64,000 nucleotides of DNA from Verrucomicrobiota bacterium (GCA_043744715.1 JAYTUE010000214.1:41332-105331), one strand, 5' to 3'. Shown: positions 4,098 to 61,707, counted from the stretch's first letter. Made by a program: numbers and translations. The notes: generated by a model from the letters alone, not told the origin.

Positions 4098-5198
4098 TTA
4101 CCGCCACTTGCCTTCGCCCCGGGGCGGCAGCTCGGTGCCGACGGGGTAGATGAGGTAGACGGTCTGGCCGGATTTCGCCCAGGCCTTGCGGACGTTGTCG
4201 CGCGGGTAGACGCGGCGGACGCGCTGGCCTTTTTCCAAACGCGCCCATGGATCGTTGATGACGACGTCGCCCGTTTCGGTGAAGCCGGCGAAGACGACGA
4301 GGTGGCCGGCGGACGAGGTCTTGGGATTGTCGTTCAGGAGATTCGCCGGGGCGGAAATGACGACGGGCAGCCCCTTGCGGAGCCACGCTTCCAGATCGGC
4401 GAAGCCGTCGAAGCGGGTGATGCACGCGCGCATTCCGGGAAAGCTCCCGGCGTAGGCGGCGTTGAAGGGCCAGTTGCCCGTGCCGTTGTAGTTCTCGTCG
4501 AAACAGGCGCGGGCTACTTCGGGCACGTCCTTCGCGAGGTCGGGCCGGTCGAGTTTCGCCGACCAGTAGTTCAAGACCATCGAGACGGAGGCGGGACTGC
4601 ACCAGCCTTCGCCGCCGGCGTAGGCGACCTGCGATTTCTCGGGAACTTCCAGCGACTTGCCCTTCATGTCCGCGCTGATGCCGGGATCGGTGGCGAACTC
4701 GCCGACCTTACGGAAGGAAAGGGCGACGAATTTCAGGGTGGCTCCGCCGGTGACGCTGTTGACCAACGTCAGCCGCACCTGCGCGCTCCTCGCCGGTTTC
4801 GTCAGGACCAGCGTGTCCGTCCTGAGCATGGCGTTTTCGTCCTGTTCGCGGCGCGGACTGCGGCGGGGTTCGGCCACGTTGTCGGGCGTCCAGTCGGCGA
4901 TCTTGTAGAAGCGGGTGGAGTTGGTGCCGTCGATGGCCCGGGCCTCGACTCGCACGACGCTTCCGGCGGGCGCCTCGACGTTCCATGAGACGACAAGCTC
5001 GTCCCAGGCGAAGGGCGCTTCGGTTTCCGGCGAGGTGAAGACGAGTCCGCCGCCTTCGGGCAGGGTGGAGAACTGGAAGTCGCGGAAGGTGTCCCAAGCC
5101 TTGAACCAGACGGCGTTCTTGTCGGGCGATGCGTTGGAGGTCATGCAGCCGGTGAGGCCGAGAGTGCAGCCGAGGAGGATGATCCAGATGCTCTTCAT
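4098..5198 (-). CDS. Lipoprotein with a C-terminal peptidase C39-like (papain-fold) domain
   Basis: ORF 4098..5237. I moved the start to MKSIWIILLGCTLGLTGC (lipobox). The C-terminal GWCSPASVSMVLNYW ... AGHLVVFAGF ... VINDPW supplies the Cys/His/Asp arrangement of C39-like peptidases. Confidence 0.7.
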   Translation of the reverse strand: MKSIWIILLGCTLGLTGCMTSNASPDKNAVWFKAWDTFRDFQFSTLPEGGGLVFTSPETEAPFAWDELVVSWNVEAPAGSVVRVEARAIDGTNSTRFYKIADWTPDNVAEPRRSPRREQDENAMLRTDTLVLTKPARSAQVRLTLVNSVTGGATLKFVALSFRKVGEFATDPGISADMKGKSLEVPEKSQVAYAGGEGWCSPASVSMVLNYWSAKLDRPDLAKDVPEVARACFDENYNGTGNWPFNAAYAGSFPGMRACITRFDGFADLEAWLRKGLPVVISAPANLLNDNPKTSSAGHLVVFAGFTETGDVVINDPWARLEKGQRVRRVYPRDNVRKAWAKSGQTVYLIYPVGTELPPRGEGKWR

Positions 5199-5279
5199 CT
5201 CGCCGCGCAGCAAAGCGTCCGTCGACGGCGAAGTCACGCTCCGGCCGGTGGTTTGTCCGAAAGTAGGCCGGAGCTTCCG

Positions 5280-5591
5280 CTACTTCTTCTCCGCTTCGGC
5301 TTTCTCGCGGAGCTGGAGGACGTAGGCGGCGAGCTGAGAGCGCTGTTCATCCTTCGTCAGTTCGGAGATGCCGTTTAGGCCAAGACCATCGAGCAGGTCG
5401 TCGCCGATGCGGTGGTAGGCGAAAATGGCGCGGGCCTCGGTGGTGATGTGCGGGTCTTCGAAGAAGAGGGGATTCGTGACGGGCGAGACGGCCTTGTCCT
5501 TCCAGGTGAGGGCCTCGGCGGCGTTCGAGTTGGAGGCAAGCCCGGCGGCCAGAACCGCGGCGGCGGAGAGGGTCAATGAGGTTGTTTTCAT
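5280..5591 (-). CDS. Small secreted hypothetical protein, possibly a gene remnant
   Basis: 103 aa with signal peptide MKTTSLTLSAAAVLAAGLASNSNA. The N-terminal part (PVTNPLFFEDPHITTEARAIFAYHRI) and the C-terminal tail (LTKDEQRSQLAAYVLQLRE) look like the ends of two different protein types. Confidence 0.4.
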   Translation of the reverse strand: MKTTSLTLSAAAVLAAGLASNSNAAEALTWKDKAVSPVTNPLFFEDPHITTEARAIFAYHRIGDDLLDGLGLNGISELTKDEQRSQLAAYVLQLREKAEAEKK

Positions 5592-37707: not shown

Positions 37708-40029
37708 TCAGGGCACCGGCTGGACCGTGTAGAAGCCGGTCGGATTACTCACCGACGTGTCGATGAAGCTCGTCTGGACCGTGGTCGCCGTCACCTGCCC
37801 GACTTCCACGCCGGTCAAGGCGTTGGCGTTGTCGCGGCGCAGGATCTTGTAGGTCGTGCCGGGGATGGAGACGAAGGTGATGCGCGGGATCGCCTGGATG
37901 CCGACCGTGAAGCCGGACAGCGGATTCAGCGGATCGGTTCCGGCCAGATACTCCTGCAGGTTGGAACTGCCGTCGCCGTCCGCATCCGTTCCGGCCCCGA
38001 CTCGGGGATCGGTCAAGTAGCCCGCGCCGAAATACTGCAGCCTCCAGCTGTTGGGCACTCCGTCGGCCAGCGCGTAGACGCGGCCGTAGTCGCCGAGTGC
38101 AACGAGGGAAACCGGCGATCCGTTGAGGAACACGCCTGCCCGGATCGTCGCGTTGCTGGTGATGGTGAACGCGCCGCTGTAGAGCGTGGAACCAATCGTC
38201 GGATTCCCGCCGTTGATCGTGAACCGGACTTCGCCGACTCCCACGATGTTGGTCAGGCGGACCGTGAGCTGGTTGGTGAACAGGCCGGGGACGGGACCGA
38301 ACTTGACCCCATCCGCCAGCACCTGGGTGAAGGCACCGGTGGAAACGGTCGAGATCGGGAAGCCGTTGAGGAACAGACCGGCCCGGAAGGTGGTGCTGCC
38401 CGTCAGCGTCAGCGGCGTCGAGTAAAGGGTCGAACTTGCCGTGGGATCAGAGCCGTTGACCGTGTAGCGGATCTGGCCGGAGCCGACGAGATTGACCAAC
38501 GAAACCGTCGTCGTGTTCGTGAAGGATCCCGGGAGGGGATTGAATTGAACGTCGCTGGCCTTCGTGTAGGTGTTGCTGAAGACGGCGGAGACGGGGGAAC
38601 CATTCACGAACAGGCGCGCCCGGATAGTCGAGTTGCTCGTGATGGTGAACGAGCTGGAGTAGAGCAACGATCCTGCGGATGGATCGACGTCATTGATCGT
38701 AAACCGGATCTCGCTGCCAGCTCCCACGTTGTTGACCATCGAGACGGCCAGCTGGTTGGTGAAACCTGACGGGGAAGCGGGCGAGAACACGATGTCGGGA
38801 GGCGGAATCACGACTCCGCCCAATAGCTCGATCAAAAGATCTGAATTGAGGTAGGACGCGGAGTTGTTGTTATCAGCGCCGCGACCAGACGCGATTTCCA
38901 CAGTGTCTCCAGCAGTCAATGCCAACTGGTTCGTGTAACCGAACGTCGCAGTTCCGGAAAGAAAAGCTCCCTTGAGCAAAACCCCGTTCACGAGGACGTG
39001 GAAGTCTGTATCCCCCTGGCCCGACGGGAACGAGGGGCTGGCCCAAGCCGAAACCCGATAGTTGCCACTTGATTGGATCGTGTAGCGGGCCACGGCGTAG
39101 TTGTCCGGGTTACCAGCAGGTCCAGGATTGAGCGTGACTCCTCCTACCGGGATGACTGCCCCCGATGAGTAGGGATCGGGACCCACATTGATTCGGGCCA
39201 AAGACTCAAGATTCTGGATCCTCATCCATCCCAGGAAAAGCGAGTTCCCCCCGGCTGCGCTGTATCTTTCTGTGTAGGGGATCAAGGAACCATTGGTCGC
39301 GCCCTTGTAACCGAGGGTCCAGTTGTTCGAAGGGTTGGCCGAAATTGGGAATTGTTTTGAGAGCTGGTAGGACGGTCCCCCAAGGGAGTTCAGGGTGATT
39401 ATAGCGCCAATCTTTAGTCCAGATCCGAAGAGGCTATTGTCGAGACCGCGGCCAACCGCGAAATCGATTGTTCCGCCCGCCAAAAGATTCGTCGTGAATG
39501 AGTAGTTTGTCGCGACCGTTACGGGAAGGGCATTGGAGATATAGGCAGCCCCGTTTACCCGGATGTGGAAATCTGTGTCTCCGGAACTCGCCCCGTTTAG
39601 GTAATTGGTTACCCCGACGGTGATCGTGTAGGAGCCGTTCGTCGGAGCTATGAACCGAGCCGCACCGTAGTCGGCCGAACTATTGGGCTGGCCGCCGAAA
39701 AGCAGGACGGTGCCCGGAGGATAGACCCCCTGTCCGCCGTCGGAAGTTCCAGTGTTGAAATAGAACTTCACAATTTCCGGAAAAGAGTCTGGGCTACGAT
39801 TCCAGCGCATTTCCGCAGCGCCGTTTGGATAGTCTGTTCTTTGGGGGTTGGCCAAAGACGCGAACTTAGAAGTGATGTTGGTGAAGTAGCCGTATGACCA
39901 AACCCCTGTGGGATTCTGATTGGTCGAGTAGTCGGCTGATAGATTGTAGGTGGCGAGCTGAGCATTGACGCTCAACGTCGAAACAATCGCCGCGATGGCT
40001 GTGAAGATGATTCCCCTGAGTCTTTTCAT
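37708..40029 (-). CDS. Large secreted repeat-domain surface protein
   Basis: 773 aa, signal peptide, GGAG 9 nt before the ATG. Two ~190-aa N-terminal repeats share GDTDFH[IV].VNG and G.GxDN. Then come three ~80-aa chitobiase/hexosaminidase C-terminal-like repeats (FTN..TV.L.N.VG.G.IR[FY]T[IV]NG..P...S.LY). Then DADGDGSSNLQEYLAGTDPLNP and a terminal beta-rich domain. Confidence 0.7.
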   Translation of the reverse strand: MKRLRGIIFTAIAAIVSTLSVNAQLATYNLSADYSTNQNPTGVWSYGYFTNITSKFASLANPQRTDYPNGAAEMRWNRSPDSFPEIVKFYFNTGTSDGGQGVYPPGTVLLFGGQPNSSADYGAARFIAPTNGSYTITVGVTNYLNGASSGDTDFHIRVNGAAYISNALPVTVATNYSFTTNLLAGGTIDFAVGRGLDNSLFGSGLKIGAIITLNSLGGPSYQLSKQFPISANPSNNWTLGYKGATNGSLIPYTERYSAAGGNSLFLGWMRIQNLESLARINVGPDPYSSGAVIPVGGVTLNPGPAGNPDNYAVARYTIQSSGNYRVSAWASPSFPSGQGDTDFHVLVNGVLLKGAFLSGTATFGYTNQLALTAGDTVEIASGRGADNNNSASYLNSDLLIELLGGVVIPPPDIVFSPASPSGFTNQLAVSMVNNVGAGSEIRFTINDVDPSAGSLLYSSSFTITSNSTIRARLFVNGSPVSAVFSNTYTKASDVQFNPLPGSFTNTTTVSLVNLVGSGQIRYTVNGSDPTASSTLYSTPLTLTGSTTFRAGLFLNGFPISTVSTGAFTQVLADGVKFGPVPGLFTNQLTVRLTNIVGVGEVRFTINGGNPTIGSTLYSGAFTITSNATIRAGVFLNGSPVSLVALGDYGRVYALADGVPNSWRLQYFGAGYLTDPRVGAGTDADGDGSSNLQEYLAGTDPLNPLSGFTVGIQAIPRITFVSIPGTTYKILRRDNANALTGVEVGQVTATTVQTSFIDTSVSNPTGFYTVQPVP

Positions 40030-53075: not shown

Positions 53076-54398
53076 ATGACCAGCGGCCCAACATTTCCAA
53101 CCGTGTCGAAGAAAATCCCGTGGATCCATGTCACGGGATTCCTTGGGGTGGTCTGCTGGGGGGCGCTTGCCTGGCGGAGCCAACACGGTCCCGAGTCCGG
53201 CAAGCTGGCGTGGTGGCTCGGCGCGCACGCGGCCGGCTGGCTCCTCCTGGCAATCGCCTGGCGTGCCGGGCGTGCCGGGCGGCCCGGTTTCAACACGGGC
53301 TGCATTTTCGCCTGGGCGCTGGCCTTCCGGATCTGCGGACTCATGGCTGAGCCCGTGCTGGAGGACGATCACCACCGGTTTCTCTGGGATGGAAGGATGA
53401 TGGCCCTCACGGGAGATCCCTATCGCAGGGCGCCTGCGGAATTTTTCCAGGATTCAACGGTTGAACCCCGCTTCCAGCGGGTCCTCGACCAGATCAACAA
53501 TCCCGGATTGACCACGGTCTACGGGCCCGTCTGCCAGCTTGGTTTTGCCCTGGGACACGTCGTGGCCCCGGCGCAGCTCTGGCCGTGGAAACTGGTCCTC
53601 ATCGGGGCGGAGATGGCCGTGCTTCTGGCATTGCGCCGGCGGCTTTCTGAAACCGGGTTCCTGCTGCTCGCGTGGTGTCCGCTGGCGGTGGCGGAGTCCT
53701 CGTTCAACGCCCATCCGGACATGCTGGGCGTCGCGCTCATGGTGGCGGCGTGGACGGTCCGTTCCCCATGGCTCGCCGGAGTGCTCGCCGCCGCCAGCGG
53801 CGGCACGAAGGTCTTCGGCTGGCTGGTGGCGCCGTTCATCCTCGTGAAATCCGGATGGCGCGCATGGCCGGCGTTCGGCCTGGCCCTGGCCGTCCTCTAC
53901 GTGCCTTTCCTCCGCAATGGGGGACTGGCGGAGTTCGCTTCGCTTCGCACCATGGCGACAAGCTGGGAGTTCAACCCGGCCGTGTTCGCCCTGCTGGATC
54001 TGTTGATGGAGTCGACTGCCGCTCGCCTGTCATGCCTTTTCCTTTTCGGACTCCTGTGGGTCGTCGTCGCCTGGCGCTGGCTGCGAAATCGTCCGAGAGA
54101 AACGGGCTCGGAAACGGTGGCTCCCCCGGGAGGAATGGTCTTCGGCGGATTCCTCCTGCTCTCGGCCACGATCAATCCCTGGTATGTGCTCTGGCTTTGG
54201 CCCTTCGTGGCGATGCGTCCGACGCGCGCCGGCGTGGCGGCATTGGCCATGGTCACGTTGAGCTATTGCACCGGCCGGAATCTCGGGCTGGAAGCCATGG
54301 AACCCTTCGCCCATCCGGCGTGGGTGGGGCCGGTTGAGTTCGGGGTGATTTTGGTCGCGGCGGTCTGGGACAGGATGCGGCCCGTTCGAATGGAATGA
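53076..54398 (+). CDS. Polytopic membrane protein, GT-C-like glycosyltransferase candidate (DUF2029-like)
   Basis: 440 aa with ~10 predicted TM segments. The first loop, DDHHRFLWDGRMMALTGDPY, is reminiscent of polyprenyl-phosphate-dependent glycosyltransferases. The family call is tentative. Confidence 0.45.
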   Translation: MTSGPTFPTVSKKIPWIHVTGFLGVVCWGALAWRSQHGPESGKLAWWLGAHAAGWLLLAIAWRAGRAGRPGFNTGCIFAWALAFRICGLMAEPVLEDDHHRFLWDGRMMALTGDPYRRAPAEFFQDSTVEPRFQRVLDQINNPGLTTVYGPVCQLGFALGHVVAPAQLWPWKLVLIGAEMAVLLALRRRLSETGFLLLAWCPLAVAESSFNAHPDMLGVALMVAAWTVRSPWLAGVLAAASGGTKVFGWLVAPFILVKSGWRAWPAFGLALAVLYVPFLRNGGLAEFASLRTMATSWEFNPAVFALLDLLMESTAARLSCLFLFGLLWVVVAWRWLRNRPRETGSETVAPPGGMVFGGFLLLSATINPWYVLWLWPFVAMRPTRAGVAALAMVTLSYCTGRNLGLEAMEPFAHPAWVGPVEFGVILVAAVWDRMRPVRME

Positions 54399-56055: not shown

Positions 56056-56763
56056 TCACTTCGCCAGCAGCGCATCCAGCTCGTTCAACCCGGTGTGGGA
56101 ACCGATCTCGTAGAAACGCGTCGCCACCTCGTGCCCGGCGAGCTGGTCGCGGCGGAGCAAGTCCTGCAACAGCTCCGCTAGATCGAAGGCTTCGCGGCCG
56201 GCGAACGGCTCGAAGGCTGCGGGCTTGAGCAGCTCCAGCCCGTAGTCGATGTGGCGCATCTCCGGCAGCGTCGCCTTCTTGTCGTAGATGCGGATGCGGC
56301 CGTCGGCGAAGACCACGTTGCTCGTGTCATGGCTGCCTTCGTTGCGATAGACGGTCATCAATCCCTGCTTGCCCGACTTCAGGAACGTCTCAGCCACGGG
56401 CGCAAAGGGAATAGGCAGATACGAATCGCCGTAGAGGACGAAGAAGGTGTCGCCCAGCAACGGCAACGCCTGCCGCAATGCCCCGCCGGTGCCGAGAAGC
56501 GTGGGGCCGTCGAACGAGTAATCCACCCGCAGGCCGAAGCGCGAGCCGTCGCCCACGACATCGCGCACCATCTCACCGAGGTAACCGACGCAGAGGACGA
56601 CATGGCGGATGCCCTCGCGCTGGAGCTGTTCGAGTTGGTGCTCGATGAACGGCCGCCCGGCCACGGCCACGAGCGACTTGGGAATCGTCTCCGTGATGGG
56701 CCGCAGGCGCGTGGCGAGCCCACCGGCGAGGATGGCGAGGGGAGGAAGGAGGATCGCGGGCAT
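56056..56763 (-). CDS. Sugar-1-phosphate nucleotidyltransferase, HddC-like (D-glycero-alpha-D-manno-heptose-1-P guanylyltransferase type)
   Basis: ORF 56056..56787; I prefer the start MPAILLPPLAILAGGLATRL (ATG 56763). Motifs PKSLVAVAGRPFIEH, LGTGGAL, VLYGDSY. Confidence 0.75.
   Translation of the reverse strand: MPAILLPPLAILAGGLATRLRPITETIPKSLVAVAGRPFIEHQLEQLQREGIRHVVLCVGYLGEMVRDVVGDGSRFGLRVDYSFDGPTLLGTGGALRQALPLLGDTFFVLYGDSYLPIPFAPVAETFLKSGKQGLMTVYRNEGSHDTSNVVFADGRIRIYDKKATLPEMRHIDYGLELLKPAAFEPFAGREAFDLAELLQDLLRRDQLAGHEVATRFYEIGSHTGLNELDALLAK
56639..56743 (-). repeat. 105-nt direct repeat, copy A (codons 8-42 of the intact nucleotidyltransferase)
   Basis: Matches 57678-57782 with 6 mismatches (about 94% identity). 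Confidence 0.85.
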
Positions 56764-56767
56764 CCGA

Positions 56768-57139
56768 TCAGCCGGTTGTCCATTCATAGTCGATTGGCGA
56801 ACCCAGAATCATCTCGGACTCTCGCAGCAACGCATCGTATTCCGCTTTGGTCAGATCCTCTTTGTCGCCCTTGAAATACGCATCGAGAAAGACCACATGG
56901 ATGCACTCGTCAATCTGGGACTGGCGGTAAACTAGGCGGTATCCGCCGCTCTTGCCGACATTCAAGCCGGGCACCCGCAGGCGCATCTTGCGGAGCTGGC
57001 CGTGCCCCGGAATGGAGACTCCATAACCCGGATTCAAGCCCAAGACTTTGCAGACATCGGGGCAGGCGTCGAACAGATGATGACGGGACTTCCTGCCGCT
57101 GCGGCGGACCCGGTGGGAGCAATGGAATCGAACGTCCAT
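56768..57139 (-). CDS. RelE/ParE-superfamily toxin (PF06296/DUF1044-like)
   Basis: 123 aa. LRKMRLRVPGLNVGKSGGYRLVYRQ...IHVVFLDAYFKGDKEDLTKAEYDAL is the typical core of this toxin group. The start is 8 nt after the antitoxin stop. Confidence 0.6.
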   Translation of the reverse strand: MDVRFHCSHRVRRSGRKSRHHLFDACPDVCKVLGLNPGYGVSIPGHGQLRKMRLRVPGLNVGKSGGYRLVYRQSQIDECIHVVFLDAYFKGDKEDLTKAEYDALLRESEMILGSPIDYEWTTG

Positions 57140-57147
57140 CGCCCTCG

Positions 57148-57639
57148 TCAGAGACCTTCCTTGTCCTCGCTCACGCCATAGGCCATCAGGGCCGGAGACA
57201 GTTTCTGGAGCTTGGCGGCATGGTGCCAGGCGGGTTCCTTGTGGCTCAGATCGGAGAGCGTCGCGGCCTTCTTTCTCCCGTGACTGCGGCAGACCTCGTC
57301 CATGATTCGTGCTTCTTCGGGCGAGAAAACAGCCATGTCCGCCGGGCGGAGCGACTGGATGGAATTGAGTCTGAAGTTTCCGACCTGCCGCTGCTCGCAG
57401 GTCACGGAGCCATCTTTGCTCAACTTCCTGATGTGCTTGTCACCCCGGCTGGGAACCGGGCCGTGCTCGTATTTGATGAACTCGGAACCCGTCACCGATT
57501 CGCCCAGATCGCGCAGCGCCTGGGTGTCGATGAAATACACGAGCTTCCAAAGCTTGGTCATTCCCAAGTCCTGGACATCGGGATGCCGGGCAATGAACAC
57601 CAGCAGCTCCTCCAGTTTTTTCGTGTTCAGCACAGTCAC
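57148..57639 (-). CDS. Panacea/DUF4065-domain (SocA/PanA-type) antitoxin
   Basis: The C-terminal ~161 aa of ORF 57148..57966, with a GTG start at 57639 or 57633. LGMTKLWKLVYFIDTQALRDLGESVTGSEFIKYEHGPVP matches the DUF4065 core. Confidence 0.65.
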   Translation of the reverse strand: MTVLNTKKLEELLVFIARHPDVQDLGMTKLWKLVYFIDTQALRDLGESVTGSEFIKYEHGPVPSRGDKHIRKLSKDGSVTCEQRQVGNFRLNSIQSLRPADMAVFSPEEARIMDEVCRSHGRKKAATLSDLSHKEPAWHHAAKLQKLSPALMAYGVSEDKEGL

Positions 57640-57664
57640 AACCTGAGTCCAACCCGATGGCCGG

Positions 57665-57802
57665 TCAAAGCCGGAGATGCTCGATGAACGGCCGCCCGGC
57701 CAGGGCCACCAGCGACTTGGGAATCGTCTCCGTGATGGGCCGCAGCCGCGTGGCGAGACCGCCGGCGAGAATGGCGAGGGGAATGTCGGCGATGATGGAC
57801 AT
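57665..57802 (-). pseudogene. 45-codon 5' stub of an HddC-like nucleotidyltransferase gene
   Basis: Reads MSIIADIPLAILAGGLATRLRPITETIPKSLVALAGRPFIEH, then LRL-stop. Homology to the intact gene ends exactly where the TA cassette begins. Confidence 0.65.
57678..57782 (-). repeat. 105-nt direct repeat, copy B
   Basis: See 56639-56743. Confidence 0.85.
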
Positions 57803-57835: not shown

Positions 57836-58462
57836 TCAGGCGCCGTTGCCCTTGCTGCCCCGTCGACGAGTTTCATGCACCTGTCTCGCATCCAGCTCCT
57901 GCCGCATCCGGGCCACGGCATTGGTGGAATAGGGAACTGTCCCGTCGCTTGCCTTCTGGAGCGCAAGCCGAAGGCGATCCATCATCTCCGAGTTCGATTT
58001 AACGCAAAGCCCCCAACCATCACCCATAACCGCATGGCAGTGCTGCTCTGAGCGTTGATGGCTGTCGGCCGGACAGAAGAGGAGGAGCGCTTTGGTCTCC
58101 TTTGCCACAGATGTGGGCAACCCATCGCCGACGAAAACGAAGCCAATGGAACCATCCTTGAAGAAAGCTTCTGGACACGCTGACGAAAACGAAGCCAACC
58201 ATTCTGCGGAGTGGTCGGATATTGGAGCCATGGCCAAGAATGCTCTCCGTGTGTCCGTCTCGGTCGGGAAGTTCGTCGCTGATTCTGCGAAAAAGAGCAG
58301 ACCCAACTTCAGCTGAATCACATGATTCGCGCAGCTTGAGACAAGGTGCTTATCGCTTGGCCATCGGTCCCGGACGAAAGCAAACCAGCCAACGACTGCT
58401 ATAGCCAAAACAAACGGTGCGGCTATGGCGGCCTTACGTCTCTTGGTGAACTTGGCGGCCAT
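57836..58462 (-). CDS. Hypothetical membrane-anchored protein in a low-GC segment
   Basis: 208 aa. N-terminal anchor KRRKAAIAAPFVLAIAVVGWFAF. SCANHVIQLKLGLLFF and HAVMGDGWG faintly recall DUF1559 / H-X9-DG pseudopilin-like proteins, but there is no prepilin motif. The start is 6 nt after the kinase stop. Confidence 0.5.
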   Translation of the reverse strand: MAAKFTKRRKAAIAAPFVLAIAVVGWFAFVRDRWPSDKHLVSSCANHVIQLKLGLLFFAESATNFPTETDTRRAFLAMAPISDHSAEWLASFSSACPEAFFKDGSIGFVFVGDGLPTSVAKETKALLLFCPADSHQRSEQHCHAVMGDGWGLCVKSNSEMMDRLRLALQKASDGTVPYSTNAVARMRQELDARQVHETRRRGSKGNGA

Positions 58463-58468
58463 GAGCGT

Positions 58469-59452
58469 TCACCCCTCCAGCACCTTCGTGCCCTGGAAGT
58501 CGAAGCGGAAGCGGACTTCGGTGAGGCCGGCCTGGCGCATGGCGTGGCGGAGCTTCGCCTTGTCCTCGTCGGCGTAGAACATGAGGAAGCCGCCGCCGCC
58601 CGCACCGATGATCTTGCCGCCGAGGGCGCCGCTGGCCCGGGCGGTCTCATACCACTGGTCGATCTGGCCGTTGCTCATGTTGCCGCTGCGCTCCTTCTTG
58701 CGCTGCCAATGCACGTCCATGAGCCGGGCGAACTCGCGCAGGTCGCCCTTCTCCATGGCGGCGGCGCTCTGCCGGCCGAGGTCCTTGATGAAATGCAGGT
58801 TCTCCAGCATCGCCTGGTCGTCCTGCTTCGACTTGTCGTGCTGTTCCTTGAGGATGGACGAGGCGGAACGGCTGTAGCCGGTGAAGAAGAGGAGGAGGTT
58901 GTCTTCGAGGTTGTAGAGCGTCTCCTCGGAGAGCTTGAGGGGCCAGGCCTTGACGTTGCCGTCCTTCTGGAACTCGAAGCAGGTGATGCCGCCGTAGGCC
59001 GCGATGTATTGGTCCTGTTTGCCGATGGGTTCGCGCAGGCGGTTGAGCTCGATGTAGCAGGCCTGGGCGGCGAGTTCAGCCGGATGGACGAGGTTCTTCT
59101 TGAAGCTGTGGAGGGCCTTCAACAGCGAAGTCGTGAAGCTGCCCGAGGAACCGAGCCCCGTGCCGGCCGGGATGTCGGCCATGCTGGTCATCTCCAGATA
59201 CGGGCCTTCCACGCCCACGAGGTCGAAGGCTTCGCGGATGATCGGGTGTTCGATCTGTTTGGCTGAGGCGACGCGTTCGAGCTTGGAATACTTCACGATC
59301 AGGTCCGGCACGAAGGTCTGGTGCAGGGTCGTGTAGATATACTTGTCGATGGCGGCGGCGACGAGGAAGCCGCCGTGGCGTTCGTAGTAGGAGGGAAGAT
59401 CGGTGCCGCCGCCGCCGAGGCTGATGCGAAGAGGGGAGCGCGTGATGATCAT
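58469..59452 (-). CDS. GHMP-family sugar kinase, HddA-like (D-glycero-alpha-D-manno-heptose 7-phosphate kinase type)
   Basis: The last 327 aa of ORF 58469..60724. MIITRSPLRISLGGGGTDLPSYY, the GHMP motif PAGTGLGSSGSF, and GGKIIGAGGGGFLMF. Confidence 0.8.
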   Translation of the reverse strand: MIITRSPLRISLGGGGTDLPSYYERHGGFLVAAAIDKYIYTTLHQTFVPDLIVKYSKLERVASAKQIEHPIIREAFDLVGVEGPYLEMTSMADIPAGTGLGSSGSFTTSLLKALHSFKKNLVHPAELAAQACYIELNRLREPIGKQDQYIAAYGGITCFEFQKDGNVKAWPLKLSEETLYNLEDNLLLFFTGYSRSASSILKEQHDKSKQDDQAMLENLHFIKDLGRQSAAAMEKGDLREFARLMDVHWQRKKERSGNMSNGQIDQWYETARASGALGGKIIGAGGGGFLMFYADEDKAKLRHAMRQAGLTEVRFRFDFQGTKVLEG

Positions 59453-59512
59453 GGCTGGCCGGAAAGGTGCGAAGGACGGCGGGCGAAAGGCAAGTGCGGG
59501 GATGAGGCCGAA

Positions 59513-61057: not shown

Positions 61058-61465
61058 TCAGGTCCATGGATCGAGAACGGCGACTCCGGCCCGGCCGAAG
61101 TCCGAGGCGTTCCGGCTCACCACGGTCAGGCTGTGCTCCAAAGCCGTGGCGGCAATGAGGGAATCGATGGCCGGAAGCGGATCGGGTAACGAACCCACAA
61201 GCCGTCCCCAACGGACTGCCACCTTGACGTCGATTTCCAGAACCCGGTTCCCGAACCATGTGGGGACATCGCTCCTAACCCAGCGTTCCAATCGTTGTCG
61301 TCTGGCCTTGTCTGTAACCTTCGCCAAGCCCTTCTCCAATTCGCCAAGCGTCAGGACGCTGACATGCAGCTCATCTTGATTGGCCAACAACCATGCGCTG
61401 ACTTTCGGATTCGGAGCCCTGTGGCTCAGTTCCGAGATGACATTGGTGTCGACAAGCCAACTCAT
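61058..61465 (-). CDS. vapC: PIN-domain toxin VapC
   Basis: 135 aa. The N-terminal WLVDTNVISEL and the later acidic residues (LGELE, AIDSLIAATA) fit a PIN domain. 4-nt overlap with the antitoxin gene. Confidence 0.8.
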   Translation of the reverse strand: MSWLVDTNVISELSHRAPNPKVSAWLLANQDELHVSVLTLGELEKGLAKVTDKARRQRLERWVRSDVPTWFGNRVLEIDVKVAVRWGRLVGSLPDPLPAIDSLIAATALEHSLTVVSRNASDFGRAGVAVLDPWT

Positions 61466-61707
61466 AGCTTCACGTCTCGTGAAAAGCTCTTGTCTCTCGA
61501 CAGGTCGAGTTCAACGCCGCGCAGCGGCTCGAACAGGTCGATGATGCTCTTCTTGCGGGCCTTGGTTTTGCGAAACTCCGCCGCCGCGACCACCACCACC
61601 ACCGGTTCGCCATGCCGCGTCACGGTCTGCGGGCCTTGGGTCAACGCGTTCTCGACCACCAGGCTGAACTGGTTCTTCGCCTCCTGAAGCTGCCACGTGT
61701 TCTTCAT
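61462..61707 (-). CDS. Phd/YefM-type antitoxin
   Basis: 81 aa. WQLQEAKNQFSLVVENALTQGPQTVTRHGEPVVVVV matches the Phd/YefM N-terminal fold pattern. Confidence 0.7.
   Translation of the reverse strand: MKNTWQLQEAKNQFSLVVENALTQGPQTVTRHGEPVVVVVAAAEFRKTKARKKSIIDLFEPLRGVELDLSRDKSFSRDVKL

Follow-up and report, generated by a model that had tools for sequence, protein, structure and literature searches.

A type II toxin-antitoxin (TA) pair lies between two copies of the 5' end of a sugar nucleotidyltransferase gene in the DNA of a Verrucomicrobiota bacterium (GCA_043744715.1, JAYTUE010000214.1:41332-105331). The stretch analyzed measures 64,000 nucleotides, and is called the window throughout. All genes of the region reside on the minus strand, and are transcribed in the order HddA-like kinase, ORF208, nucleotidyltransferase stub, PanA antitoxin, toxin, intact nucleotidyltransferase. 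The kinase and nucleotidyltransferase genes are indicated as hddA and hddC, the interval between them as the gap, and loci fetched from other genomes by L numbers. The gap is a small cassette hotspot, and the duplicated gene end is tentatively interpreted as the scar of an old join between two versions of it. The features are the following:

58469-59455, minus strand: HddA-like GHMP sugar kinase gene (Pfam GHMP_kinases_N and GHMP_kinases_C), the conserved left flank of the cassette hotspot.
57836-58462, minus strand: ORF208, an accessory cassette with an N-terminal hydrophobic anchor, occupying the left part of the gap.
57665-57802, minus strand: stub of 45 codons, made by hddC codons 1-42, 3 out-of-context codons and a stop (NTP_transferase, E 2e-6).
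57678-57782, minus strand: stub (upstream) copy of the 105-nt direct repeat, codons 8-42.
57674-57679, minus strand: illegitimate junction between the stub and the TA spacer, located by alignment with the L014 and L018 spacers.
57640-57676, minus strand: upstream spacer of the TA module, homologous to the hddA-PanA intergenic region of L014 and L018.
57148-57639, minus strand: PanA antitoxin with Panacea domain, 163 aa, GTG start (Pfam SocA_Panacea).
56768-57139, minus strand: predicted toxin of the HigB-2/RelE superfamily, 123 aa (profile match to HigB-2 structures).
56056-56763, minus strand: intact MurU/HddC-like sugar-1-phosphate nucleotidyltransferase, 235 aa (Pfam NTP_transferase, E 1.3e-18), the conserved right flank of the hotspot.
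56639-56743, minus strand: downstream copy of the 105-nt direct repeat, within the intact gene, codons 8-42.

The two copies of the direct repeat are identical at 99 of 105 positions (94%). This is the longest direct repeat found between 54 and 60 kb, and one of only two in the whole window that measure at least 35 nt and are spaced by 100-6000 nt; the other (38107-38280 and 38587-38763, 177 nt, 72% identity) has copies 480 nt apart. A first-pass annotation, made from the sequence alone, had placed the repeats at these coordinates, assigned both to codons 8-42 and counted a single TA pair between them, and all of this was confirmed. According to the codon table, codons 8-41 of the stub and of the intact gene differ at six positions, five of which are synonymous third-position changes and one leads to a V34L replacement. 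Codons 1-7 are unrelated (MSIIADI in the stub, MPAILLP in the intact gene). The stub ends as HLRL, codon 42 being followed by LRL and then by the stop. The six mismatches, the unrelated first codons and the early stop of the 45-codon stub had likewise been read correctly at first pass. A further synonymous change had been reported in the H codon: the CAC/CAT difference does exist in codon 42, but is no independent substitution, as it corresponds to the junction base in the stubs of seven assemblies.

The closest homologues of the intact protein, 91-97% identical, or 94-97% with residues 1-7 set aside, start with MTSLADI, MSIIADI or MNSLADI, and the start of one of them (database entry P0005) is exactly that of the stub. 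The MPAILLP terminus, which would denote a donor allele, is restricted to the window, and was found neither in the 30 closest homologues nor in any fetched locus. The 45 nt upstream of the stub, taken together with its codons 1-7, match the relative L001 (GCA_043775315.1) at 65 of 66 positions. Because of this match, and because MPAILLP is unique to the window, the native context is assigned to the stub and the odd start to the intact copy. The comparison supports the view, advanced at first pass, that the stub is a fossil of the native-type 5' end of the gene, MSIIADI and MTSLADI being the usual N-termini of the closest homologues. The 18 nt which follow the ATG of the intact gene (CCCGCGATCCTCCTTCCT; window 56744-56763) have 7 of 18 positions in common with the start of L176-type genes, and the DNA around this patch is about 90% identical to the L176 type.

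At the joint between stub and TA spacer, hddC homology ends after GAGCA (57678) and spacer homology begins with CTC (57676), the T at 57677 being assignable to neither side. The window reads CAT CTCCGG CTTTGACC..., the spacer between hddA and PanA in L014 and L018 reads CCA CTCTGS CTTTGACC..., and the matching point in these two stub-free loci is found about 11 nt past the hddA stop. The junction is abrupt, with microhomology of at most 2-3 nt (CA/CAC). Stub, stop and junction (...CAT-CTCCGGCTTTGACC, the hyphen marking the joint) are common to the window and to six assemblies, L176 to L181; across the seven the junction string is CAT-CTC(C/A)GGCTTTGACC. L176 (GCA_031428035.1) was found through its PanA homologue (82% identity), and features, in order, an ORF208 orthologue, a 540-nt spacer, the 45-codon stub, PanA, toxin, transferase and the same GH32 gene as the window, with which it is collinear at 90.8% DNA identity over 3.35 kb. 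L177 to L181 are five more stub-bearing contigs from other samples and metagenome-assembled genomes (MAGs). In all of L176-L181 both copies start with MTSLADI or MTPLADI. Synonymous divergence (dS) between the window and L176 is 0.27 for the transferase, 0.16 for GH32, 0.50 for PanA and 0.99 for the toxin. As junction and stop codon are shared by the window and six assemblies about 9% diverged from it, the structure has a single origin, in one event that preceded the split of the window and L176-type lineages; the event is old, and reading it as a recent insertion is not tenable. The spacer upstream of the stub in L176 (530-1070), as in L177, L178, L180 and L181, contains two copies of a GC-rich 116-nt repeat (608-723 and 912-1026 in L176, 86% identical). 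It may be a small repeat element, and no copy of it resides in the window or in the other fetched loci.

Exact-sequence look-ups of the window HddC and PanA proteins retrieved no contig on record, and the genomic context was taken from relatives. L001 contains the kinase, a 204-aa orthologue of ORF208 and the transferase, with one 5' end and no TA pair. It aligns without interruption to window positions 59584-57678 and then 56743-56046, so that the window differs from it by 934 extra bases and the 105-nt duplication. L014, L015 and L018 feature kinase, short spacer, PanA, toxin and transferase, and have neither stub nor ORF208. Both parental arrangements are thus still present in relatives. 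The gap is filled by yet other genes elsewhere, a DUF4272 gene in L003 and L004, a SUKH/SMI1_KNR4 gene in L006, a glyoxalase-fold protein in L012. The first-pass annotation had proposed to look for empty sites, which lack the TA pair and have only one 5' end; L001, L003 and L006 are such sites. Relatives with varying gap genes have hddC genes 86-97% identical, and homology among them is interrupted from the hddA stop codon to a point in the first 4-7 codons of hddC. Since relatives hold different genes in the gap and homology breaks at these points, the hddA-hddC interval is a cassette hotspot of small size, in which a few initial codons of hddC move together with the cassette.

Composition varies along the region. 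GC content is 0.578 in the toxin gene, 0.589 in PanA and 0.568 in ORF208, versus 0.637 in hddA, 0.657 in hddC and 0.642 in the window. GC at third codon positions (GC3) is 0.63-0.77 in accessory genes (0.63 in ORF208) versus 0.87-0.91 in core genes, the stub being core-like (0.85). The lower-GC interval perceived at first pass is real, as the accessory genes range from 0.57 to 0.59 and the surroundings from 0.64 to 0.66. ORF208 gave no match in Pfam and NCBIfam searches. Its orthologues are the 204-aa gene of L001 (64% aa identity) and a partial open reading frame of L176 (72%); dS between the window and L001 is 0.77 for ORF208, versus 0.17-0.19 for the flanking genes. ORF208 also contains a nearly perfect direct repeat of 21 nt (CGCYGACGAAAACGAAGCCAA), at 58126-58146 and 58178-58198, 52 nt apart. 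The window kinase is 99% identical to that of L001 and 95% to that of L006 at the protein level. The enzymes are a GHMP sugar kinase and a sugar-1-phosphate nucleotidyltransferase, and their names remain "-like" because the curated NCBIfam equivalog models score far under their cut-offs (HddA 163.7 versus 600, HddC 88.9 versus 300, MurU 134.5 versus 250 bits), the MurU model being the best NCBIfam match of the transferase. The intact transferase gene starts 4 nt past the toxin stop.

The kinase-gap-transferase unit as a whole (window 59584-56046) has sharp homology bounds, one about 130 nt ahead of the kinase start, the other about 10 nt past the transferase stop. It is placed between a lactate permease gene and a trigger factor gene in L001 and L003, and between DUF1501 and GH32 genes in the window; in L006 the context is made by a DUF1501 gene, then a 266-aa gene with SBP_bac_5 genes. 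Being 92-97% identical at the DNA level across contexts, the unit may move between genomic backbones.

PanA was identified by the Pfam family PF13274, SocA_Panacea (E 8.8e-19, 68.9 bits versus a cut-off of 25.7), and the exact 163-aa protein of the window is database entry P0166. The toxin taken as a single sequence remains under the Pfam RelE threshold (18.9 versus 27 bits). A profile made from 20 toxin homologues matches the HigB-2 chains 5ja8, 9tv9 and 8a0x of the PDB at E 2e-7, and the protein is better termed a predicted HigB-2-like toxin of the RelE superfamily. PanA (Panacea) antitoxins pair with many toxin families, and their gene directly precedes that of a small toxin (Kurata et al. 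2022, PMC8832971). Loci for comparison were fetched from 80 of 306 metagenome-scan matches and 80 of 309 genome-scan matches. In 68 non-redundant PanA-toxin loci PanA lies 0-60 nt upstream of the toxin, and the window pair is in itself ordinary; what sets it apart is the location inside a two-gene metabolic unit. The ratio of non-synonymous to synonymous divergence (dN/dS) between the window and L176 is 0.20 for PanA and 0.085 for the toxin, and the pair is conserved under purifying selection. Two convergent PanA-toxin modules, the second one fragmented, are found on one contig in L048 (1128-3000).

A -35-like box, TTGACC, is found at 57663-57668, where it overlaps the stop codon of the stub, and the joint lies 8 nt upstream of it. 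A comparable motif, TTGAC...GTCAA, precedes PanA in L053, L054 and L056. The upstream spacer may accordingly be suspected of promoter function; a scan for sigma-70 consensus promoters between 55.9 and 59.7 kb found none, and terminator-like matches in the interval were at chance level.

The nearest homologues of the toxin (86%, 71% and 62% identity) are also located directly upstream of hddC. Some 60 other PanA-toxin loci, distributed over Verrucomicrobiota, Planctomycetota, cyanobacteria and others, do not adjoin it. In a neighbour-joining tree of PanA plus toxin the hddC-linked pairs are monophyletic, with the branching ((L014, L018), (L176, window)). Window and L014 are 73% identical in HddA, 58% in PanA, 71% in the toxin and 73% in HddC; L014 and L018 are 83%, 74% and 79% identical in HddA, PanA and toxin, respectively. 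The hddC-linked TA pairs co-diverge with hddA and hddC. As they form one clade, and their identities track those of the flanking enzymes, the TA pair is an old occupant of the gap, not a recent cassette. The notion of a roving TA cassette that targets hddC is to be abandoned on the same grounds, as on the lack of a stub in L014 and L018 and on the location of the other 60 or so loci elsewhere.

The first-pass annotation had taken the mostly synonymous differences between the repeat copies as the mark of two diverged alleles, each evolved under coding constraint. The raw bias is there, as 5 of 6 changes are synonymous versus 31-33% expected without constraint (P 0.012-0.016), but fades once changes are polarised. 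With outgroups, three changes are unique to the window stub, two synonymous and V34L (P about 0.23), and the remaining three differences between stub and intact copy are states of the intact copy or standing polymorphisms. Codon states found only in stubs, in six stubs and in none of ten functional alleles, include 9 synonymous and 6 non-synonymous ones. The latter (A10V, A13T, V34L, A35V, E41G, E41K) hit residues that are invariant in the functional alleles, in which 19 minor states are synonymous and 2, both affecting residue 33, are not (Fisher P 0.046 versus stubs). The stubs are decaying.

Decay has been slow. The stubs of the window and L176 differ by 0.10 per site, and the adjacent PanA and toxin genes show the dS values of 0.50 and 0.99 given above. 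The first 66 nt at the window stub are L001-like; L176-type stubs start with MTSLADI behind a different upstream sequence, and the stub of L179 is nearly identical to the intact copy of the same locus. Because stubs are less decayed than expected, and because of the L001-like 66 nt and of the resemblance in L179, it seems that the stub has been repeatedly overwritten in part, through recombination or gene conversion with functional hddC 5' ends. The mostly synonymous pattern is no proof that the copies were diverged alleles at birth, since later allelic exchange yields the same pattern. A short gene fragment may thus persist for long, and keep looking "selected", through recombination with functional alleles, and caution is due when the origin of short duplicates is deduced from synonymous and non-synonymous changes.

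The reading preferred here, with a confidence that stays somewhat below even, is that one illegitimate join of two gap versions took place long ago and left the repeat as its scar. Version A would be hddA-ORF208-hddC, version B hddA-spacer-PanA-toxin-hddC. Cassettes of the hotspot would be exchanged by recombination, hddA and hddC serving as homology arms. In the event at issue, codon 42 of an A-type hddC would have been joined into the B-type spacer, giving a product which holds both cassettes with a 42-codon hddC fragment between them. In the favoured direction, TA-hddC would have been the resident, and the incoming DNA would have consisted of hddA-ORF208 plus the first 42 codons of a foreign hddC allele, anchored by homology in hddA and with its illegitimate end just before the TA pair, as in homology-facilitated illegitimate recombination. 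A recombinant retaining the TA pair would escape any post-segregational killing. Thereafter the stub would have been a non-functional fossil, in which slow decay and partial overwriting keep the differences mostly synonymous. The balance leans to a B-type resident because the joint would then lie just beyond the end of the anchor, as described for homology-facilitated illegitimate recombination, and because the TA pair is old in the gap and its retention would avoid any killing. Entry anchored by homology at one end and illegitimate at the other is the model proposed for effector-immunity arrays of the type VI secretion system, T6SS (PMC5361080). That diverged versions recombined had been proposed at first pass, and is retained; that the TA pair was the arriving unit and restored the 5' end is not, as ORF208 and a foreign hddC fragment may have entered instead.

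Several points weigh against this reconstruction. In sliding comparisons with L001, L003, L006 and L176, both hddA and hddC are mosaic, and neither crossover points nor a direction can be called. MPAILLP is not found in L176-L181, and to account for this either the window lineage went through one more event or the L176-type copies were converted. In laboratory systems, homology-facilitated illegitimate recombination occurs rarely (PMC5361080), and addiction by this TA pair is presumed. Stub-only states are still enriched in synonymous changes relative to neutrality (P 0.019), and decay alone is insufficient to account for them. The higher dS of the TA genes (0.5-1.0, versus 0.27 for hddC) could reflect weaker constraint on codon usage, given their lower GC3.

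The same junction would be formed in the opposite direction, the one proposed at first pass, which is considered unlikely though it ranks next. The spacer, PanA, the toxin gene and the 5' part of an hddC of foreign origin would have entered a genome with hddA-ORF208-hddC; the right crossover would be homologous, in hddC, the left end joined illegitimately at resident codon 42. Alternatively, a circularised fragment of 1,039 bp would have integrated by a single crossover in codons 8-42. In both cases the resident 5' end would have become the stub, and the gene would now depend on an imported one. Architecture and junction fit this direction equally well. It agrees with the L001-like native context of the stub (65 of 66 nt), and with the intact N-terminus, LLP-PLAILAGG, which is unlike the ADI-PLAILAGG of the close clade, and resembles those of the distant L010 and L012, not linked to TA pairs, and loosely those of the TA-linked L014 and L018 (PLP). 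The divergence of the two alleles, 7/106 compared with 3-8/106 among strains of the clade, is also what an import would give. A canonical one-anchor joint, however, falls outside the anchor, and here it would lie 105 nt inside, which calls for a circle or a more complex route. The donor end would have to fall within a stretch of approximately 11 nt, past the hddA stop and before the retained spacer, since homology in hddA would otherwise have led to plain replacement. The "foreign" N-terminus is restricted to the window, both copies starting with MTSLADI or MTPLADI in L176-L181, and the long co-divergence of the TA pair with its flanks is a further point against this direction. Tandem duplication in situ is judged improbable. 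A unit of 1,039 bp (spacer-PanA-toxin-hddC codons 1-42) would have been doubled in a TA-bearing ancestor, the upstream TA copy later swapped for ORF208 through hddA and stub arms by ordinary homologous recombination, and the repeat copies, at first identical, would have received their mostly synonymous differences by allelic recombination. Duplication yields exactly the junction between codon 42 and spacer, and all steps but the first are common types of event. The window stub is chimeric, L001-like over 66 nt and then marked by older stub-specific changes, as if it had served as a crossover arm. In L179 the 3' end of a toxin gene lies directly upstream of the stub (toxin'-stub-PanA-toxin-hddC), which suggests a second copy of the TA unit in tandem. 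But this fragment (1-131), a third allele, differs at 7-9 of 130 nt from L176-type toxins and is 78% identical to the window toxin; belonging to the L176-type allele group, it is no relic predating the split of window and L176. L179, a single 2.2-kb contig with a 60-nt stretch identical to the other stub type, more likely reflects amplification through the repeats at a later time, or a chimera of strains. Against duplication are also the 540-nt spacer upstream of the stub in L176, which contains no PanA or toxin remnant, and the instability of a 1-kb tandem, which had to survive until replacement.

Insertion of the TA pair plus one repeat copy into hddC by a recombinase encoded elsewhere is given very little credit. 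Direct repeats that include a gene end are a hallmark of integrase insertion at tRNA genes, icd and dusA (PMC4482086), and PanA-toxin modules are bracketed by repeats at other genes too (5 of 68 loci versus 0.11 expected, as detailed below). No recombinase is encoded in or beside the bracket, however. Only PanA and toxin are found between the repeats, and no integrase or transposase family was detected among the neighbours between 50.9 and 64 kb. Those assigned to families are a GH32 hydrolase, argininosuccinate lyase, DUF1501 and a PSD1 protein; for a 440-aa open reading frame (53076-54398) Pfam gave no family. At the other loci the bracketing repeats involve different target genes, vary in length (45-142 nt), lie at different distances from the TA pair, and have no common boundary motif. 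The same TA clade resides in the same gap without repeats in L014 and L018, and the left boundary is an ordinary intergenic spacer. No motif resembling att or attC was seen. A single clade, whose members share one junction, accounts for all cases of the stub-TA architecture. No notable inverted repeat of the attC type was seen at either boundary; an integron cassette was rejected for this reason and for the lack of a nearby integrase, and a cis-mobilisable remnant of an integrative element for the lack of att motifs and of a recombinase. Erroneous joining of two strain variants during metagenome assembly is hardly credible. The window comes from a MAG-type record, and strain mixtures occur in such samples, as the ambiguity of L179 shows. 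But the same stub and junction were assembled independently, in distinct variants, in seven records from several projects, and the stub carries substitutions of its own that are absent from any intact copy.

The preferred reading, an illegitimate join between gap versions, can be compared with known systems. Integration hotspots are intervals between two core genes which hold different accessory genes in close relatives and are renewed by homologous exchange in the flanks. The hotspot described here differs because it is very small (one or two genes), lies within an apparent single operon, and has its right bound in the first codons of the downstream gene. Phage 21 and element e14 in icd, as elements integrated in tRNA genes, duplicate 3' ends by integrase-mediated site-specific recombination, and the gene-end copy borne by the element differs from the resident copy mainly at synonymous sites. 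A duplicated gene end with mostly synonymous differences is what these cases have in common with the window, and they are the model for the argument made at first pass; 3' ends and integrase do not apply here.

Islands and prophages specific for dusA provide the gene with a new 5' end, and what remains of the original one is found at the outer boundary (Farrugia et al. 2015, PMC4482086). Direct repeats of the 5' region of a gene flank the insert in both situations. However, dusA elements measure tens of kb, encode a tyrosine integrase and excise as circles that restore the gene, whereas the window features an insert of 934 bp, a TA pair only, no integrase, and an ordinary illegitimate joint. 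The 5' end of a protein-coding gene had been set apart at first pass from the tRNA gene ends restored by integrative elements, but its replacement by incoming DNA is already documented for the dusA islands (PMC4482086). Since this was known and no recombinase is involved, the structure is to be regarded as the scar that recombination left in a cassette hotspot. It does not amount to a new type of mobile element, and its novelty is modest.

A closer functional analogue is provided by displacement arrays. In Vibrio cholerae T6SS effector-immunity arrays, as in orphan modules of Rhs and contact-dependent inhibition (CDI) systems, a conserved stretch anchors the incoming module and the old one is kept (PMC5361080). 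Fragments of conserved genes remain between the cassettes, and retention of the old module is proposed to be favoured by the harm that its loss would cause (PMC5361080). The homology anchor, the illegitimate other end and the retention of the old cassette are common features. In those arrays the anchor is the conserved 5' body of a toxin gene, 3' ends are displaced, and an immunity gene is kept; here two enzymes of sugar activation form the flanks, a 5' end is left as the fossil, and the module kept, in a single displacement step, is a type II TA pair.

Gene-end fossils were also found around other PanA-toxin modules. Tight brackets, defined as direct repeats that measure 35 nt or more and lie no farther than 300 nt from either module end, mark 5 of the 68 non-redundant loci, versus 0.11 expected from repeats placed at random positions in the same loci, the control being crude and the sample small. 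In L056 the 3' end of an MmeI-type restriction-modification gene recurs 16 nt past the toxin stop, as a copy of 142 nt (98.6% identical) with an alternative C-terminal tail. L120 contains a 72-nt remnant of the 3' end of an MmeI-type gene, and L053 has, 23 nt past the toxin, a second copy of the final 45 nt of the upstream gene with its stop codon. L054 and L055 have the MmeI-TA arrangement without the fossil. The bracket of L029 (50 nt, 80%) has no resemblance to a gene end and was left out of the solid cases. In every solid case the fossil is on the far side, with the TA pair between it and the intact gene, and no boundary motif is shared. At least three independent events are represented, involving the hddC 5' end, the MmeI-type 3' end (L056, L120) and the 3' end of the other gene (L053).

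Location of the fossils on the far side, and boundaries without a common motif, fit repeated illegitimate additions beside TA pairs. It is conceivable, if doubtful, that TA pairs bias cassette exchange, clean replacement being lethal and the survivors being rare illegitimate recombinants that add DNA beside the TA pair. If true, hotspots that hold TA pairs would grow by accretion and accumulate gene-end fossils, and the fossils would act as additional crossover arms, letting the TA unit loop out, amplify or re-integrate without a recombinase. Should the recurrence hold, it would provide a testable link between TA addiction and gene accumulation in genomic hotspots. The hddA-hddC gap is a clean and datable natural example of accessory-gene shuffling in a tiny hotspot of uncultured Verrucomicrobiota-like bacteria, for which both parental arrangements and the recombinant are still found in public data.

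L120 features a second bracket, a 242-nt duplicate (2460-2701 and 5070-5310, 87%) of the 5' end of a helicase-like gene. It encloses an MmeI_C remnant, PanA, toxin, a second MmeI_C remnant and two open reading frames. The upstream copy is a stub, and the downstream one heads an intact gene of 695 aa, a layout similar to that of the window in an unrelated gene.

A second TA pair resides in the window at 61058-61707, on the minus strand, and is made by a PIN-domain VapC-like protein of 135 aa and a Phd/YefM antitoxin of 81 aa. It is placed between a PSD1/DUF1553 gene and the DUF1501 gene. The same intergenic site measures only about 260 nt in L006, and the VapC-like pair therefore represents another TA insertion or polymorphism in the neighbourhood.

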